A DNA stretch of 64,000 nucleotides. Source: Escherichia coli. GTDB taxonomy: Bacteria > Pseudomonadota > Gammaproteobacteria > Enterobacterales > Enterobacteriaceae. The DNA lies in the NCBI RefSeq assembly GCF_036507355.1, contig NZ_AP027877.1; one strand, written 5' to 3'. A program made the position numbers and the translations under genes. The notes under the pieces are model-generated. The model was not told the DNA's origin and searched no databases. It worked only from the letters and a program-made list of their open reading frames with translations. Shown in pieces: positions 4,205 through 39,638 of the stretch (positions are counted from its first letter, which is position 1; each line of letters begins with the position of its first letter).

Positions 4205-5266
4205 ATGAAAACGATGCTGGCAGCTTATTTACCAGGAAATTCGACCGTCGATCTGCGGGAAGTTGCGGTGCCGACGCCGGGGATTAACCAGGTACTGATC
4301 AAAATGAAATCCTCCGGAATTTGCGGAAGCGATGTCCACTATATTTATCATCAACACCGCGCCACGGCGGCGGCGCCCGATAAACCGTTATACCAGGGAT
4401 TTATCAACGGTCATGAACCGTGCGGGCAAATTGTGGCGATGGGGCAAGGCGGTCGCCATTTTAAAGAGGGCGACCGCGTGCTGGTGTATCACATTTCTGG
4501 CTGTGGTTTTTGCCCGAACTGCCGCCGCGGTTTTCCTATTTCTTGTACTGGCGAAGGAAAAGCGGCTTACGGCTGGCAGCGTGACGGCGGTCATGCCGAA
4601 TATCTGCTGGCGGAAGAAAAAGATCTGATCCTCCTGCCGGATGCGCTGAGCTACGAAGATGGCGCGTTTATCAGTTGCGGCGTTGGCACAGCGTATGAAG
4701 GGATCTTGCGCGGCGAAGTTTCCGGCAGTGATAACGTGTTGGTGGTTGGTCTGGGGCCGGTCGGCATGATGGCGATGATGCTGGCGAAAGGTCGCGGTGC
4801 AAAACGGATCATCGGCGTTGATATGCTGCCGGAACGTCTGGCGATGGCAAAACAGTTAGGGGTGATGGATCACGGCTATTTAGCGACCACCGAAGGTCTG
4901 CCGCAGATAATTGCTGAACTTACCCACGGTGGCGCGGATGTTGCTCTTGATTGTTCAGGTAATGCCGCAGGTCGCTTGCTGGCACTGCAATCCACTGCTG
5001 ACTGGGGGCGGGTGGTTTACATTGGTGAAACCGGAAAAGTGGAATTCGAGGTCAGCGCCGATCTGATGCACCATCAACGGCGGATTATTGGCTCCTGGGT
5101 GACCAGTCTGTTCCATATGGAAAAATGCGCCCACGATTTGACTGACTGGAAGCTGTGGCCGCGTAACGCCATTACCCATCGCTTCTCGCTGGAACAGGCA
5201 GGTGATGCCTATGCGCTGATGGCGAGCGGCAAATGCGGAAAAGTTGTGATTAACTTCCCGGATTAA
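4205..5266 (+). CDS. yphC: Zn-dependent alcohol dehydrogenase family oxidoreductase
   Basis: MDR/ADH-like ORF (GHE, Cys-rich zinc site, GLGPVG Rossmann motif); start chosen at SD-preceded ATG giving 353 aa. Confidence 0.88.
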   Translation: MKTMLAAYLPGNSTVDLREVAVPTPGINQVLIKMKSSGICGSDVHYIYHQHRATAAAPDKPLYQGFINGHEPCGQIVAMGQGGRHFKEGDRVLVYHISGCGFCPNCRRGFPISCTGEGKAAYGWQRDGGHAEYLLAEEKDLILLPDALSYEDGAFISCGVGTAYEGILRGEVSGSDNVLVVGLGPVGMMAMMLAKGRGAKRIIGVDMLPERLAMAKQLGVMDHGYLATTEGLPQIIAELTHGGADVALDCSGNAAGRLLALQSTADWGRVVYIGETGKVEFEVSADLMHHQRRIIGSWVTSLFHMEKCAHDLTDWKLWPRNAITHRFSLEQAGDAYALMASGKCGKVVINFPD

Positions 5267-5277
5267 GGAGTCAGCGG

Positions 5278-6150
5278 ATGACCATCTATACCTTATCTCA
5301 CGGGGGGCTCACGCTGGACGTTTCTGACCAGGGCGGTGTCATAGAAGGTTTCTGGCGTGATACGACGCCGCTCTTACGTCCTGGTAAAAAAAGCGGTGTG
5401 GCAACCGATGCCTCCTGTTTTCCGCTGGTGCCGTTTGCAAACCGGGTGAGCGGTAACCGTTTTGTCTGGCAGGGGCGTGAGTATCAACTGCAACCGAATG
5501 TTGAATGGGATGCGCACTATCTGCACGGCGACGGCTGGCTGGGGCAGTGGCAATGTGTCTCGCGCAGTGATGATAGCTTGTGTCTGGTATATGAACATCT
5601 CAGCGGTGTCTATCACTATCAGGTAAGTCAGGCGTTTCATTTAACGGCGGATACGCTGACGGTGACGCTCTCTGTCACCAATCAAGGGGCAGAGACGCTG
5701 CCATTTGGTACCGGCTGGCATCCTTATTTTCCGTTGTCGCCGCAAACGCGGATTCAGGCACAGGCGAGCGGTTACTGGCTGGAGCGGGAGCAGTGGCTGG
5801 CGGGTGAGTTTTGCGAGCAGCTACCGCAAGAATTGGATTTTAACCAGCTCGCGCCGTTGCCGCGCCAGTGGGTGAACAATGGTTTTGCCGGATGGAATGG
5901 TCAGGCCCGCATCGAGCAGCCGCAGGAGGGTTATGCCATCATCATAGAAACGACGCCACCTGCACCGTGTTATTTCATCTTTGTTTCCGACCCGGCGTTT
6001 GATAAAGGATATGCGTTTGATTTCTTCTGTCTGGAGCCGATGAGCCATGCGCCGGATGACCATCATCGCCCGGAAGGGGGGGACCTCATTGCGCTTGCGC
6101 CGGGGGAATCAACAACCTCAGAGATGTCGTTGCGGGTAGAGTGGCTGTAA
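5278..6150 (+). CDS. yphB: Aldose 1-epimerase family protein
   Basis: 290-aa ORF, AAGGAG SD; synteny. Confidence 0.88.
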   Translation: MTIYTLSHGGLTLDVSDQGGVIEGFWRDTTPLLRPGKKSGVATDASCFPLVPFANRVSGNRFVWQGREYQLQPNVEWDAHYLHGDGWLGQWQCVSRSDDSLCLVYEHLSGVYHYQVSQAFHLTADTLTVTLSVTNQGAETLPFGTGWHPYFPLSPQTRIQAQASGYWLEREQWLAGEFCEQLPQELDFNQLAPLPRQWVNNGFAGWNGQARIEQPQEGYAIIIETTPPAPCYFIFVSDPAFDKGYAFDFFCLEPMSHAPDDHHRPEGGDLIALAPGESTTSEMSLRVEWL

Positions 6151-7928: not shown

Positions 7929-8741
7929 TTAAAGATCCAACCCAGCCGCTACGTGGCGAATGCCGCGAATCGCTAAACCCGCATCAGCGTTGATCATCAC
8001 ACCGCTTAATGCGCGATTATTGCGCCGCGATGCCAACATCACATACGGACCCGTAAAATCAGCCGGTTGCGGGAAAAATTGCAGCGGTAAAATGGCGGCA
8101 ATTTTCTCCGGCGTCAGAGACTGCATTATCGAGGTTTCACTTTGCCCGAGCGCCTGTGGGCCGCGCAGGTCGCTGGCCATACCACACGGGCCGACGCCAT
8201 TCACCCGCACTTTCGGTGCCAGTTCATAAGCCAGTTGGCGAATAAGTCCGGTTGCAGCATGTTTACTGGCGGTGTACAGCGGGCCACCGCCGCCAGGATA
8301 CCAGGCGGCATTTGACAGTGTGAAAATCATGCTGCCTTCACTGGCGATTAACGCCGGAGCGCAGGCTTTTGCGCCCAGCAGGTAACCGAGTACGTTGACG
8401 TTAAACAGCTCGTGGAAGCCGGTTTCGAGCGTCTCTGCGGGAGTATTAACCAGTGAGGCATTGTGATCCCAGATGCCCGCATTGCCGATAAAACAATCTA
8501 GCTTGCCGGAACGAGTCAGGATCTGATCGACCGCGCGTTGATAATCGGCATAACAGGTCACGTTGCCTTCCACCGCCAGAATATGTTCGCCAAATCGCTG
8601 ACGCAGACTGGCGACTTTTGCCGCCGACAGTTCCAGCGTGGCAACCTGCGCGCCTTCTTCGATAAATCGCTCGACCAGCGCCAGCCCTAATCCCGATCCG
8701 CCGCCGGTAATAAAAATGGACTCGTTATGCAGATCGCTCAT
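7929..8741 (-). CDS. hcaB: cis-dihydrodiol dehydrogenase (SDR family)
   Basis: 270-aa SDR ORF (TGGGSGLG); overlaps hcaC by 4 nt. Confidence 0.93.
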
Positions 8742-18139: not shown

Positions 18140-18250
18140 TAAAAAGAATTCAGAATCAGGCCGGAGTGCTAAATACTCCGTAAACACGGTCGTACATCCA
18201 GCCGGTAGCCTGGTTCCTTGCATTGAGTGATGTACGGAGTTTATAGAGCA

Positions 18251-23246: not shown

Positions 23247-23490
23247 TTTCCGCGTCATGCTTCACGCCGCAGATGCGTTGGCTGCGCTCGTTCACCCCAG
23301 TCACATAGTTATCTATGCTCCTGGGGCTTCACTCACTTGCCACGTGATTCGGCCTTTTGGCCTCACCCCTCCGGGGCCAGCGCAAGCGCTGTTCAAAACG
23401 CAATGCGTTTTGTCCTGCAACGCGAATCATTTAGCGGAAAAATCCTGGGGCTGCCAACTGGCGGCCCTTTTACAAAGAAGGATAACTAAA

Positions 23491-24888: not shown

Positions 24889-24916
24889 CCCGAACGTTGA
24901 ATGAATTGTGGTTCTT

Positions 24917-25693
24917 ATGTCCGAAACAAAAAATGAACTTGAAGACCTGCTGGAAAAAGCAGCAACCGAACCGGCGCACCGCCCGGCTTTTTTCCGTACT
25001 CTACTGGAATCCACCGTCTGGGTGCCTGGTACGGCGGCGCAGGGCGAGGCTGTGGTTGAAGAGAGCGCGCTTGATTTACAGCACTGGGAAAAAGAAGACG
25101 GCACCAGCGTCATTCCTTTTTTTACCTCGTTAGAAGCACTTCAACAGGCGGTTGACGGCGAACAGGCATTTGTTGTAATGCCCGTTCGCACATTGTTTGA
25201 GATGACCCTTGGCGAAACGCTCTTCCTTAATGCCAAACTGCCAACCGGTAAAGAATTTATGCCGCGTGAAATCAGTTTGTTGATTGGTGAAGAGGGAAAT
25301 CCGCTGAGCAGTCAGGAAGTACTGGAAGGCGGCGAATCGCTGATATTATCGGAAGTCGCAGAGCCGCCAGCACAAATGATTGATTCACTCACCACCTTAT
25401 TTAAAACCATTAAACCAGTGAAGCGTGCTTTTATCTGTTCAATTAAAGAGAACGAAGAGGCACAGCCTAATTTACTTATTGGTATTGAAGCCGATGGTGA
25501 TATCGAAGAAATTATTCAGGCGGCGGGAAGTGTAGCAACCGATACATTACCTGGCGATGAACCAATCGATATTTGCCAGGTGAAAAAAGGGGAAAAAGGA
25601 ATTAGCCATTTTATTACCGAACATATTGCGCCATTCTATGAACGTCGTTGGGGTGGTTTTTTGCGTGACTTTAAACAGAACCGGATAATCTAA
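24917..25693 (+). CDS. sseB: SseB (enhanced serine sensitivity protein B)
   Basis: ORF MSETKNELEDLL (258 aa); the ORF track start at 24908 is a GTG; synteny next to pepB. Confidence 0.88.
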   Translation: MSETKNELEDLLEKAATEPAHRPAFFRTLLESTVWVPGTAAQGEAVVEESALDLQHWEKEDGTSVIPFFTSLEALQQAVDGEQAFVVMPVRTLFEMTLGETLFLNAKLPTGKEFMPREISLLIGEEGNPLSSQEVLEGGESLILSEVAEPPAQMIDSLTTLFKTIKPVKRAFICSIKENEEAQPNLLIGIEADGDIEEIIQAAGSVATDTLPGDEPIDICQVKKGEKGISHFITEHIAPFYERRWGGFLRDFKQNRII

Positions 25694-25694
25694 A

Positions 25695-26000
25695 ATATGC
25701 CGCCCCAAAGGGCGGCATTCGGGCTTACCTGCTGTTCTGAAGGTTGTTAACCACCAGTAAATTGTTGCCGGAGAGACTCAGGTTATTATTTACCTCGGTT
25801 AACAGCGCACCAGAAACAATAAGTACGATACAAAAGCACCGTATCTTCATTGTGCGGTCCATGCGAAGACCGCATCACGACAGCACCACTGGCGATATTG
25901 CCGCGATAGCAAGCGCTGTGAAACACCTGCATTTACGGCCACGGAACATCCTTTCCTAAAGCCAGCGCCCGTTTGCGAGACGGCGGAAAGGGCCGGTGTC
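25695..26000 (-). ncRNA. ryfA: RyfA-like RNA, copy 1 (mRNA for a small hydrophobic protein); 5' end not determined
   Basis: Minus-strand hairpin gccgccc-tttg-gggcggc plus AUAUUUUA tail at about 25695-25722; location between sseB and sseA as for K-12 ryfA. Confidence 0.5.
25725..25850 (-). CDS. timP: TimP-like small hydrophobic protein, 41 aa (MKIRCFCIVLIVSGALLTEVNNNLSLSGNNLLVVNNLQNSR), copy 1
   Basis: Intact ATG...TAA ORF on the minus strand, below the 60-aa ORF-track cutoff; hydrophobic N-terminus; terminator immediately downstream; weak SD. Confidence 0.5.
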   Translation of the reverse strand: MKIRCFCIVLIVSGALLTEVNNNLSLSGNNLLVVNNLQNSR

Positions 26001-26034
26001 GATAATACGCTAAATAAACAATAATTACTCTCTT

Positions 26035-26063
26035 TTGCTTGACAAAAAGAGAGTTGCTGGCGA
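26035..26063 (+). promoter_or_regulatory. Candidate sigma70 promoter of the divergent sRNA, copy 1
   Basis: TTGACA at 26035-26040, 17-bp spacer, GAATAT at 26058-26063. Confidence 0.4.
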
Positions 26064-26067
26064 ATAT

Positions 26068-26177
26068 TGCTCTGCTGTGAAGCACCTGCGTTGCTCATGC
26101 AACACAAGTCAATCTGCTGGAGAGGCCGCGAACCAAACCGGCAACAAATAACCGCCTGATTTTGGCGGTTTTTTGTT
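26068..26177 (+). ncRNA. TimR/RyfB-like antisense sRNA candidate, copy 1
   Basis: Promoter-like element upstream, terminator ccgcc-tgattt-ggcgg-TTTTTT at 26150-26177; 5' segment complementary to the copy-1 RyfA 5' UTR. Confidence 0.45.
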
Positions 26178-26378
26178 GCTTAAAGAAAGTGAATTTACAT
26201 GTTTAAGTAATATCTTTTACCGGTTAGTATTTTTAATATTGAGCGGGATTTGTTTATATTTGTCTGAATTCGGACTAATAAGCCAGGTCATTTTAATATC
26301 GAACATATTGCGCCATTCTATGAACGTCGCTGGGATGGTTTTTTGCGTGACTTTAAACAGAACCGGATAATCTAAAAT

Positions 26379-26680
26379 ATGCCGCCCCAAAGGGCGGCAT
26401 TCGGGCTTACCTGCTGTTCTGAAGGTTGTTAACCACCAGTAAATTGTCGCCGGAGAGACTCCGGTTATTATTTACCTCGGTTAACAGCGCACCAGAAACA
26501 ATAAGTACGATACAGAAGCACCGTATCTTCATTGTGCGGTCCATGCGAAGACCGCATCAAGACAGCACCACTGGCGATATTGCCGCGATAGCAAGCACTG
26601 TGGGGTGCCTGTATTTACGGTCATGGAACATCCTTTCCTAAAGCCATCGCCCGTTTGCGAGACGGCGAAAAGGGCCATTA
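26379..26680 (-). ncRNA. ryfA: RyfA-like RNA, copy 2; 5' end not determined
   Basis: Second copy of the same terminator hairpin and ORF-bearing block. Confidence 0.45.
26407..26532 (-). CDS. timP: TimP-like small hydrophobic protein, 41 aa, copy 2 (two substitutions relative to copy 1: L24R, N29D)
   Basis: Intact ORF MKIRCFCIVLIVSGALLTEVNNNRSLSGDNLLVVNNLQNSR on the minus strand. Confidence 0.5.
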   Translation of the reverse strand: MKIRCFCIVLIVSGALLTEVNNNRSLSGDNLLVVNNLQNSR

Positions 26681-26756
26681 AGAATAATACTCTCATGTTT
26701 GAATAATTACTCTGTTTATTATCTTGACACAGCCAGGCATAAAAGAGAGTATTTCA

Positions 26757-26862
26757 ACACTGTGGGGTGCCTGCGTTGCTCCGGCAACACAAGTCAACCT
26801 GCTGGAAAGGCCGCGAACCAGACCAGCAATAAAAAACCGCCAAATTCGGCGGTTTTTTATTG
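26757..26862 (+). ncRNA. TimR/RyfB-like antisense sRNA candidate, copy 2
   Basis: TTGACA at 26724-26729; terminator accgcc-aaattc-ggcggt-TTTTTT at 26835-26862 (bidirectional, also serves sseA); 5' segment has a perfect 16-nt match to the copy-2 RyfA 5' UTR. Confidence 0.45.
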
Positions 26863-26874
26863 CCTGTAAAATAC

Positions 26875-27720
26875 TTATTTCACTGGCTCAACCGGTAAAT
26901 CTGCCCGCGCGCCCCATTCACTCCATGCGCCGTCGTACAGTTTCACGTTTGGCACATCCAGCGTCGCGAGTGCTAACAAAACCACGGCTGCCGTTACACC
27001 AGAGCCGCAGCTGACGATAATTGGTTTGTCGTAGCTGACGCCGCGACCAAAAAATATCGCATCCAGTTCATCGGTCGTTTTTAGTTCGCCTTCGCGCACC
27101 AGTTCCGTCCACGGAACGTTCAATGCACCGGGAATATGTCCGCGACGTAAACCTGGGCGAGGTTCATCAACTTCTGCGTTAAAACGTGCAGCCGGGCGGG
27201 CATCAATAATTTGCGCCGTATTTTCATGGCTTGCCAATAACACATCGGTTACTTTCACCACTGCTTCAGGATTAAACGCGGCGTTAAACTCTCCTTCCGG
27301 CAGCTCTACTGCACCTTCTTCTAACAACAGATCATCGCGCTGCCAGCCTGCAAGTCCACCCCCCAGAATCGACACTTTCTCTACACCAAAGGTGCGCAGC
27401 ATCCACCATGCTCGTGGGGCTGAGAAAAGATTACCTTCGTCATAGACAATCAGGTGCTTATCCTGGTTAACGCCTAATTCACGCATCGCCACGGCGAACG
27501 TTTCCGGGCGCGGCAGCATGTGCGGAAGCGGGGAAGTGTGATCAGAAAGCGCTTCGATATCAAAAAACACTGCGCCGGGAATATGTCCATTCAGATACTC
27601 CTGAGCAACGTTACGATCTTCCTGTCCAGGCGACGCCATGCGGGCATCGATAATCTGAATTTCCGGGTCATCAATATGTTCGGCGAGCCAGTCGGCTCCT
27701 ACAAACCATGTCGTGGACAT
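26875..27720 (-). CDS. sseA: 3-mercaptopyruvate sulfurtransferase (tandem rhodanese domains)
   Basis: Start MSTTWFVGADWL (281 aa); rhodanese active-site Cys (CGSGVTA); ORF track extends upstream to 27879. Confidence 0.93.
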   Translation of the reverse strand: MSTTWFVGADWLAEHIDDPEIQIIDARMASPGQEDRNVAQEYLNGHIPGAVFFDIEALSDHTSPLPHMLPRPETFAVAMRELGVNQDKHLIVYDEGNLFSAPRAWWMLRTFGVEKVSILGGGLAGWQRDDLLLEEGAVELPEGEFNAAFNPEAVVKVTDVLLASHENTAQIIDARPAARFNAEVDEPRPGLRRGHIPGALNVPWTELVREGELKTTDELDAIFFGRGVSYDKPIIVSCGSGVTAAVVLLALATLDVPNVKLYDGAWSEWGARADLPVEPVK

Positions 27721-27926
27721 AGGCATCTCCATTTTTGCCGGGGTTAGGCTAAATTGTCGGATGTTTAGTGAAAAGCGACAAGCAAAAGAGGCTGATTTGG
27801 CTGTCTGAGCCACAATTCTCACTAAAATTCGGATTGTATGGGCGTGATACTGAATTACATAACGTAAATTCTCACGCATAATAATTATTCGACGTTGCTA
27901 ACGGGCCATTGTGGCAGGGATGAAAA

Positions 27927-38409: not shown

Positions 38410-39528
38410 ATGCATAACCAGGCTCCAATTCAACGTAGAAAATCAACACGTATTTACGTTGGGAATGTGCCGATTGGCGATGGTGCTCCCATCGCCGTAC
38501 AGTCCATGACCAATACGCGTACGACAGATGTCGAAGCAACGGTCAATCAAATCAAGGCGCTGGAACGCGTTGGCGCTGATATCGTCCGTGTCTCCGTACC
38601 GACGATGGACGCGGCAGAAGCGTTCAAACTCATCAAACAGCAGGTTAACGTGCCGCTGGTGGCTGACATCCACTTCGACTATCGCATTGCGCTGAAAGTA
38701 GCGGAATACGGCGTCGATTGTCTGCGTATTAACCCTGGCAATATCGGTAATGAAGAGCGTATTCGCATGGTGGTTGACTGTGCGCGCGATAAAAACATTC
38801 CGATCCGTATTGGCGTTAACGCCGGATCGCTGGAAAAAGATCTGCAAGAAAAGTATGGCGAACCGACGCCGCAGGCGTTGCTGGAATCCGCCATGCGCCA
38901 TGTTGATCATCTCGATCGCCTGAACTTCGATCAGTTCAAAGTCAGCGTGAAAGCGTCTGACGTCTTCCTCGCTGTTGAGTCTTATCGTTTGCTGGCAAAA
39001 CAAATCGATCAGCCGTTGCATCTGGGGATCACCGAAGCCGGTGGTGCGCGCAGCGGGGCAGTAAAATCCGCCATTGGTTTAGGTCTGCTGCTGTCTGAAG
39101 GCATCGGCGACACGCTGCGCGTATCACTGGCGGCCGATCCGGTCGAAGAGATCAAAGTCGGTTTCGATATTTTGAAATCGCTTCGTATCCGTTCGCGAGG
39201 TATCAACTTCATCGCCTGTCCGACCTGTTCGCGTCAGGAGTTTGATGTTATCGGTACGGTTAACGCGCTGGAGCAACGCCTGGAAGATATCATCACTCCG
39301 ATGGACGTTTCGATTATCGGCTGCGTGGTGAATGGCCCAGGTGAGGCGCTGGTTTCTACACTCGGCGTCACCGGCGGCAACAAGAAAAGCGGCCTCTATG
39401 AAGATGGCGTGCGCAAAGACCGTCTGGACAACAACGATATGATCGACCAGCTGGAAGCACGCATTCGTGCGAAAGCCAGTCAGCTGGACGAAGCGCGTCG
39501 AATTGACGTTCAGCAGGTCGAAAAATAA
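38410..39528 (+). CDS. ispG: HMBPP synthase IspG
   Basis: 372-aa ORF with Fe-S Cys ligands ([16 protein letters not shown]). Confidence 0.96.
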
Positions 39529-39638
39529 TAACGTGATGGGAAGCGCCTCGCTTCCCGTGTATGATTGAACCCGCATAGCTCCCGAAACATTGAGGGAAGC
39601 GTTGAGGGTTCATTTTTATATTCAGAAAGAGAATAAAC

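Follow-up and report, generated by a model that had tools for sequence, protein, structure and literature searches.

The second timP reading frame of a tandem ryfA locus in Escherichia coli: copy-to-copy comparison, 5'UTR structure and predicted antitoxin pairing

The tandem locus between sseB and sseA

The window analysed here, a stretch of 64,000 nucleotides from one Escherichia coli genome (assembly GCF_036507355.1, contig NZ_AP027877.1), carries two timP units between sseB and sseA. The features of the locus, in window coordinates, are as follows.

24908-25693 (+): sseB
25692-25996 (-): ryfA/timP mRNA copy 1 (RF00126, 313.8 bits), with an ORF at 25725-25850 and SL2 of class A (variable region UGUUU)
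26070-26175 (+): TimR1, the unit-1 antitoxin sRNA (seed 26074-26089; predicted promoter 26039-26068 and terminator 26150-26170)
26132-26342 (-): inter-unit spacer, matching 'IS128 RNA' (RF00125, 228.6 bits)
26291-26375 (+): duplicated sseB 3' fragment, the left edge of unit 2 (95.3% identical to 25609-25693)
26374-26678 (-): ryfA/timP mRNA copy 2 (RF00126, 315.1 bits, model 1-296 of 296; gathering score 80)
26407-26532 (-): timP copy 2 ORF, 41 codons plus stop (NF040796 match; peptide identical to WP_243043448.1)
26536-26555 (-): SL4 hairpin GCGGUC...GACCGC, sequestering the GGA Shine-Dalgarno just upstream of AUG 26532
26569-26575 (-): pseudoknot, SL3 side (RNA GCCAGUG)
26596-26611 (-): SL2, predicted TimR2-binding site, class B (variable region CACCC)
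26643-26649 (-): pseudoknot, SL1 side (RNA CGAUGGC), with a private C-to-A change at 26647
26755-26861 (+): TimR2, a RyfB-type antitoxin sRNA divergent from timP2 (seed 26758-26773; ends predicted)
26875-27879 (-): sseA

Each unit has the same order: the last 85 nt of sseB, a shared terminator, the timP ORF, the 5'UTR, back-to-back promoters and the TimR terminator. The copy 2 mRNA comprises the 5'UTR stem-loops SL1-SL4, the ORF and an intrinsic terminator (26400-26379), and the two ryfA copies are 95.0% identical. A terminator hairpin for TimR2, an inverted repeat followed by a T run, was found at 26826-26863; TimR2 is 100% identical to the TimR adjoining class-B timP in O157 and in two-unit E. 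coli. The duplicated sseB 3' fragment is functionless, and PGAP labels the equivalent fragment a partial sseB pseudogene in E. coli genomes. Between the units lies an AT-rich spacer of ~110 nt, within the RF00125 match. Because this match is the inter-unit spacer, overlapping the TimR1 terminator and the duplicated sseB fragment, it is doubtful whether 'IS128 RNA' is an sRNA in its own right.

Elsewhere in the window, Rfam gave further matches over the gathering score: an iscRS stability element, sroE and ES036 (CssrF), with 18140-18249, 39528-39619 and 48098-48140 among the listed coordinates, and a weak match to AaHKsRNA22 (45.3 bits; 23348-23420, the last of the listed coordinates) inside the pepB upstream region. 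An exact IS1 terminal inverted-repeat sequence was present at 56215-56237 (-).

The earlier note had read a 41-residue TimP-like peptide from 26407-26532 (-), with a full-length paralogue in unit 1 from which it differs by L24R and N29D. Translation of the unit-2 ORF gave MKIRCFCIVLIVSGALLTEVNNNRSLSGDNLLVVNNLQNSR followed by a stop, an exact match. The unit-1 ORF (25725-25850, (-)) likewise has 41 codons, and its peptide is the same except for L24 and N29, as claimed. The size of the ORF is unremarkable alone, as dozens of similar ORFs lie close by in the window; its significance comes from homology to known families, not from length. The NCBIfam HMM NF040796 (toxic_TimP, cutoff 45) matched residues 1-39 of the unit-2 peptide with 84.2 bits (E=5.1e-24) and the unit-1 peptide with 77.7 bits. 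The unit-2 peptide has a basic n-region (MKIR), a hydrophobic core at residues 5-17 and a polar tail; MKIR is followed by CFCIVLIVSGALL, and the Kyte-Doolittle GRAVY over residues 5-17 is 2.86.

An in-frame upstream ATG at 26544 would extend the N-terminus by MDRT. In a 19-sequence cross-genus alignment this upstream AUG is not conserved, being AAG in Rahnella and Erwinia, and ACAAUGAA at the downstream start is invariant. The start originally assigned (AUG 26532) is therefore right, and PGAP annotates the same one.

None of 5,426 complete E. coli genomes matches the locus exactly; the closest are 99.1-99.2% identical, the best being TB06052 (99.2%). In TB06052, PGAP gives two timP CDSs at the same positions with a partial sseB pseudogene between them, and the unit-2 peptide, annotated TimP (WP_243043448.1), is identical to that of the window. 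Across the genomes searched, a PGAP TimP call lay beneath the match in all 60 best-matching rows and in 39 of 40 spread-sampled rows. In seven multi-copy E. coli genomes both or all three timP copies were annotated as intact and free of a pseudogene flag; the sseB fragments were flagged. With the short ORF as query, timP was present at at least 95% identity in 5425 of the 5426 genomes, at 5597 places in total (~172 extra copies, up to three per genome). The copy count rests on this short query, longer-query counts being unreliable, with BLAST pieces from K-12-type loci joined. By its sequence, the unit-2 ORF is timP, the toxin ORF inside the ryfA RNA, in a second copy that was already known. 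The gene, its duplication, the cognate sRNAs and the mechanism have been published, and the ORF is routinely annotated by PGAP.

Conservation between copies, within Escherichia and across genera

It had been proposed that both ORFs stayed intact despite about 20% nucleotide divergence elsewhere in the units, and that this reflects purifying selection on the peptide, arguing that it is coding. The units compare as follows.

25609-25914 against 26291-26596, 3' block: 97.4% identity, 8 differences in 306
25915-26180 against 26597-26865, 5' half: 73.2% identity, ~27% divergence
sseB' fragment: 4 differences in 85
spacer, terminator and 3'UTR: 0 in 31
ORF: 3 in 126
SL4 and SL3: 1 in 64
SL2: 9 in 31
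SL1: 4 in 51

The ORF differences are these.

25766/26448: N29D
25780/26462: L24R
25833/26515: silent, codon 6 (F6)

The proposed divergence is roughly right for the 5' half but does not hold for the 3' block. Divergence between the units is concentrated in the TimR-binding SL2, the promoter spacer and timR. Because the ORF sits in a uniform block of 306 nt that includes the dead sseB fragment, its conservation is uninformative. It is no better conserved than its noncoding flanks, the dead fragment included (3 differences in 126 vs 8 in 231; Fisher p=0.75), and two of its three differences are nonsynonymous, giving a pN/pS between copies of 0.61 (p=0.55). With flanks equally conserved and changes mostly nonsynonymous, the paralogue comparison carries no signal of selection on the peptide, and this part of the argument fails.

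The two replacements are not specific to one paralogue. The single TimP of K-12 is R24/D29 and that of O157 is Q24/N29, and in XJ34 unit 1 is R24/D29 and unit 2 L24/N29, the reverse of the assignment in the window. In two-unit genomes, neither the position of a unit nor its SL2 class fixes which TimP allele it carries. Codon-24 states and SL2 classes occur in all four combinations, pointing to recombination or gene conversion across the 3' block. The two ORFs are nearly identical because they share a recombining 3' block, and not through measurable selection on the peptide. Codon 24 itself (26462 and 25780 in the window) is CGG (R), CTG (L) or CAG (Q) in Escherichia, the three alleles differing at the second position. 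With R, a 6-bp mRNA hairpin, CCGGAG-UCU-CUCCGG, is complete; the L and Q alleles leave a mismatch in it.

The dN/dS check suggested for purifying selection gave no support to it within Escherichia. In a sample of 23 copies from 14 loci, every copy is 41 codons long, with 18 nucleotide alleles and 16 distinct peptides. There were 17 nonsynonymous and 6 synonymous variants, not distinguishable from the neutral ratio (p=0.81), pairwise pN/pS ranged from 0.6 to 1.8, and divergence was higher at codon position 2 (0.071) than at position 3 (0.039). No stop codon was found in the 23 copies. This is uninformative, with 0.56 expected, because just 9 of the 369 possible substitutions in the ORF create a stop.

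Across genera the pattern is that of a coding sequence. Species-representative genomes scanned with the exact SL4/start motif yielded 22 true loci, from Yersinia, Rahnella, Erwinia, Pantoea, Superficieibacter, Citrobacter and Escherichia, the motif missing Salmonella and many genera. A motif hit in Selenomonas (L014) was a chance match and was discarded. In Yersinia pekkanenii the motif occurred on three contigs (L011, L012, L013), two of them very short, which suggests multiple timP copies in this species. All complete ORFs fit the pattern MK(I)R-x-x-CIVL-VSGALL and run 38-42 codons from the invariant AUG. Internal stops are absent from the TimP frame in 23 of 23 distinct sequences from seven genera; the other two frames are stopped in 23 and 19 of the 23. 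Mean pairwise divergence at codon positions 1, 2 and 3 is 0.35/0.27/0.43 overall, 0.24/0.12/0.37 in the first 20 codons and 0.43/0.39/0.48 in the tail, the median dN/dS is 0.36, and the N-terminal half is the most conserved part of TimP. As read from these comparisons, the coding signature of the timP family is concentrated in the putative signal or anchor segment, and is seen across genera and not within Escherichia. It agrees with a published RNAcode result and with experiments in Salmonella (PMC7667032).

The unit-2 ORF is thus most likely a TimP-type coding ORF, because of the family match, the open frame in 23 of 23 sequences, the codon-position pattern of the N-terminal half and the published Salmonella experiments (PMC7667032). 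In this the proposal of a coding ORF was most likely right, but not for the paralogue conservation on which it was argued. Near-identity of short paralogous ORFs gives no evidence of purifying selection when noncoding flanks and a pseudogene fragment are equally conserved and most differences are nonsynonymous.

5'UTR structure and predicted antitoxin pairing

The 5'UTR was analysed in an alignment of 19 sequences, with C. amalonaticus, Y. similis and Y. aleksiciae, in which SL1 is deleted, excluded. Five helices (the SL1 stem, the inner SL1 hairpin, SL2, SL4 and the SL1-SL3 pseudoknot) were tested jointly; 98.2% of cells were paired and 7 pairs had changed on both sides, a result reached in 0 of 500 shuffles. 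In SL4, whose role in Shine-Dalgarno sequestration has been described (PMC11228461), all six pairs are invariant in the 19 sequences, and the variable upstream AUG (26544) lies in the loop.

Of the cells in the 7-bp pseudoknot helix, 99.2% are paired, and three of its pairs covary. Its Escherichia consensus is CGCUGGC with GCCAGUG. The sole unpaired cell among the 19 sequences is that of the timP2 studied here, where the C-to-A change at 26647 produces an A x G mismatch and leaves 6 of 7 positions paired. All 17 other Escherichia copies checked, including unit 1 of the window, have the consensus GCUGGC. The 7-mer duplex is predicted to weaken, from -10.7 to -5.0 kcal/mol. One pair of the SL3 stem is lost to another private change, U for the consensus G at 26560, and the SL3 fold goes from -13.7 to -9.2. 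A shifted register, GGCGAU x AUCGCC, could compensate (-11.9 vs -13.8 kcal/mol with flanks, predicted). In Salmonella, mutations that disrupt the pseudoknot abolish timP translation (PMC11228461), so that an intact timP2 ORF is no guarantee of translation competence.

SL2 of copy 2 (26596-26611) and the TimR2 seed (26758-26773) are perfect complements over 16 of 16 nt, and the differences in SL2 between the units are mirrored in the TimR seeds, with TimR1 (26074-26089) matching timP1. The two elements also form a perfect 16-nt direct repeat on the + strand. Duplex energies were predicted between the SL2 region and the 5' end of TimR, because full-length RNAs in every combination paired unrealistically along the whole molecule (-63 to -75 kcal/mol). 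Predicted cognate duplexes had energies of -36.1 (TimR1-timP1) and -40.0 kcal/mol (TimR2-timP2), as against -15.1 for TimR1 on timP2 and -27.6 kcal/mol for TimR2 on timP1, the latter through G·U pairs. Three SL2/TimR classes were found across E. coli, A (UGUUU), B (CACCC) and C (CGCGU), such variable-region classes having been described before (PMC5333039). They are orthogonal in silico, with -36 to -40 kcal/mol for cognate and about -14 to -27 kcal/mol for non-cognate pairs. Because the units differ mainly in their SL2/TimR pairing sequences, each TimR is predicted to control chiefly the toxin mRNA of its own module.

Probable function of the second copy, and related loci

The Salmonella system provides the model. 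Its ryfA was shown in 2020 to be coding: TimP is translated and toxic, resides in the inner membrane and is under repression by TimR, a divergent sRNA (PMC7667032); an SL1-SL3 pseudoknot is needed for translation and is disrupted when TimR binds SL2 (PMC11228461). By analogy, each module of the window would give a ~305-nt timP mRNA whose 5'UTR folds into SL1-SL4 and whose 3' half encodes a 41-residue protein with an uncleaved Sec-type signal or anchor segment. The Shine-Dalgarno would be locked in SL4, and translation would need the SL1-SL3 pseudoknot. The divergent TimR, of ~100 nt, would pair through its 5' end with the SL2 loop of its own mRNA, disrupting the pseudoknot and blocking translation.

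The window resembles Salmonella in RNA family (RF00126), protein family (NF040796) and the sseB neighbourhood; in an ORF that follows SL4 and encodes a basic and hydrophobic N-terminus; in the predicted SL1-SL3 pseudoknot architecture; and in a divergent sRNA that is complementary to SL2 at its 5' end and then runs to an intrinsic terminator. It differs in the length of the peptide (41 residues vs 38) and its diverged polar tail, in having two tandem modules instead of one, and in the mismatch that copy 2 carries in the canonical pseudoknot register; translation and toxicity, moreover, have been demonstrated for Salmonella alone.

A counterpart for the duplication is Shigella dysenteriae, for which tandem sibling copies ryfA1 and ryfA2 were reported in 2017; they are 95% identical, differ in a variable region of 5 nt and are each accompanied by a divergent RyfB (PMC5333039). 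Both copies are transcribed there, and RyfB1 acts specifically on RyfA1 (PMC5333039). The likeness extends to the tandem arrangement, the locus, the degree of identity (95.0% in the window), the variable region as the largest difference (CACCC in unit 2, UGUUU in unit 1) and a divergent RNA of ~100 nt upstream of each copy whose complementarity spans the variable region. Judged by this region, unit 2 of the window corresponds to 'RyfA1' and TimR2 to 'RyfB1'. The Shigella study treated its RNAs as noncoding; its negative coding test used a 30-residue ORF (PMC5333039). This appears to be an ORF in another frame (the 30-codon ORF at 26468-26560 in unit 2 of the window), and not the 41-residue TimP.

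The zorO-orzO, ibs-sib and ldr-rdl loci of E. coli are multi-copy chromosomal type I toxin-antitoxin loci with copy-specific antitoxins. Like these, the timP modules are paralogous toxin/sRNA pairs, tandem or dispersed, that a short variable pairing region discriminates. Unlike them, TimP has a putative Sec-type signal segment, and the timP mRNA is unprocessed and relies on a pseudoknot (PMC11228461).

We consider it highly probable that timP2 belongs to a genuine second timPR module, served by a class-B antitoxin of its own, which forms with the first a tandem type I toxin-antitoxin pair between sseB and sseA. This assignment follows from the family matches, the anatomy of the locus, the cognate complementarity, the covariation of the pseudoknot and the open frame across genera. 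On the Salmonella analogy, we infer that timP2 would be translated, toxic and repressed by TimR2.

A possibility of some weight, though an unlikely one, is that the Escherichia and Shigella ryfA copies act mainly as regulatory RNAs, alone or as partner or sponge of TimR/RyfB, with the ORF kept by RNA constraint and by homogenization of the 3' block; occasional translation, as in a dual-function RNA, would be compatible with this. No protein from E. coli or Shigella ryfA has been detected in the literature, and papers of 2021 and 2026 call translation in E. coli unproven (PMC8205139, PMC13188913). The ryfA phenotypes of UPEC are independent of the ORF, as ORF-disrupting alleles still complemented the deletion (PMC8205139), and overproduction of RyfA1 lowers ompC in S. 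dysenteriae (PMC5333039). A mainly regulatory role would also fit the variation within Escherichia, where synonymous sites are as conserved as replacement sites (0.039 at position 3, 0.071 at position 2; 17 nonsynonymous and 6 synonymous variants), and the position of the whole ORF within paired regions of the Rfam model. It accounts poorly, however, for one frame staying open across seven genera with the others closed, for the coding-type codon-position pattern of the N-terminal half, for an invariant AUG at a fixed distance from the Shine-Dalgarno in SL4, and for the translation and toxicity of Salmonella TimP (PMC7667032).

Less probable again, and in our judgement quite unlikely, is a copy in decay, transcribed but translationally crippled by its private 5'UTR mutations, its ORF intact for want of time. 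The change at 26647, unique among the 19 sequences and absent from 17 other Escherichia copies, together with the weakened 7-mer duplex (-10.7 to -5.0 kcal/mol) and SL3 fold (-13.7 to -9.2), is what would be seen in such a copy, and pseudoknot-disrupting mutations do abolish translation in Salmonella (PMC11228461). With 9 of 369 substitutions making a stop, a dead ORF can stay open long, and collapsed modules in three other species do keep open ORFs. Against decay, the shifted register GGCGAU x AUCGCC regains most of the pairing energy (-11.9 vs -13.8 with flanks), and the TimR2 seed and SL2 site are still matched at 16 of 16 positions, as expected if repression still matters. Neither alternative, a mainly regulatory RNA or a weakened copy, is mutually exclusive with the reading of timP2 as a second timPR module. 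That the ORF is an accidental open frame in a noncoding repeat is hardly conceivable: short ORFs of like size do abound in the window, but this possibility is effectively ruled out by the NF040796 match (E=5e-24) together with conservation of frame, start and length across genera.

Across E. coli the locus is a mosaic array. In PapM-32-1 (L028, 1335-3184), timP-timR units of classes A, C and B follow one another in tandem, with all three ORFs annotated as intact and two sseB pseudogene fragments. In K-12 (J53, L002 1595-2105; compare 25997-26865 of the window), the class-A timP adjoins a class-C TimR with the seed CGCTGAGACGCGCTTGC, a non-cognate combination (-26 kcal/mol, as against -36 for a matched pair). 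The class-A TimR that is cognate to it lies ~0.4 kb off, past the IS128 spacer and two remnants of a deleted unit, 7 nt of sseB' and a piece of SL1. The K-12 locus appears to have arisen from a multi-unit array by deletion or recombination, leaving an orphan antitoxin.

Collapsed modules were seen in Y. similis (L017, ~4535-4693), Y. aleksiciae (L024, ~5269-5427) and C. amalonaticus (L023, ~8041-8199). These lack SL1 and both promoters, and SL2 is joined directly to the TimR body in reverse complement. Such an arrangement is consistent with collapse by deletion between direct repeats, one being the SL2 site and the other the TimR seed in reverse complement; the 16-nt direct repeat in the window is of the same kind. 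The ORFs are still open, with 39 codons in Y. similis, 42 in Y. aleksiciae and 38 in C. amalonaticus, so that an intact ORF is weak evidence of function.

As a conjecture that we hold to be unlikely as a whole, the sseB-sseA locus of Escherichia and Shigella may be a recombining array of timP-timR cassettes of three orthogonal classes. Its toxin alleles, including the three-state codon 24 (L/R/Q), would be shuffled, the tail of the peptide would be without replacement constraint, and some antitoxins would be mismatched or orphan; the pseudoknot change in copy 2 could then be the sign of a toxin mRNA turning to a role purely at the RNA level. Whether ryfA is translated in E. coli and Shigella has been debated from 2021 to 2026. 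A coding signature that is present across genera but not within Escherichia frames that debate and points to concrete alleles.
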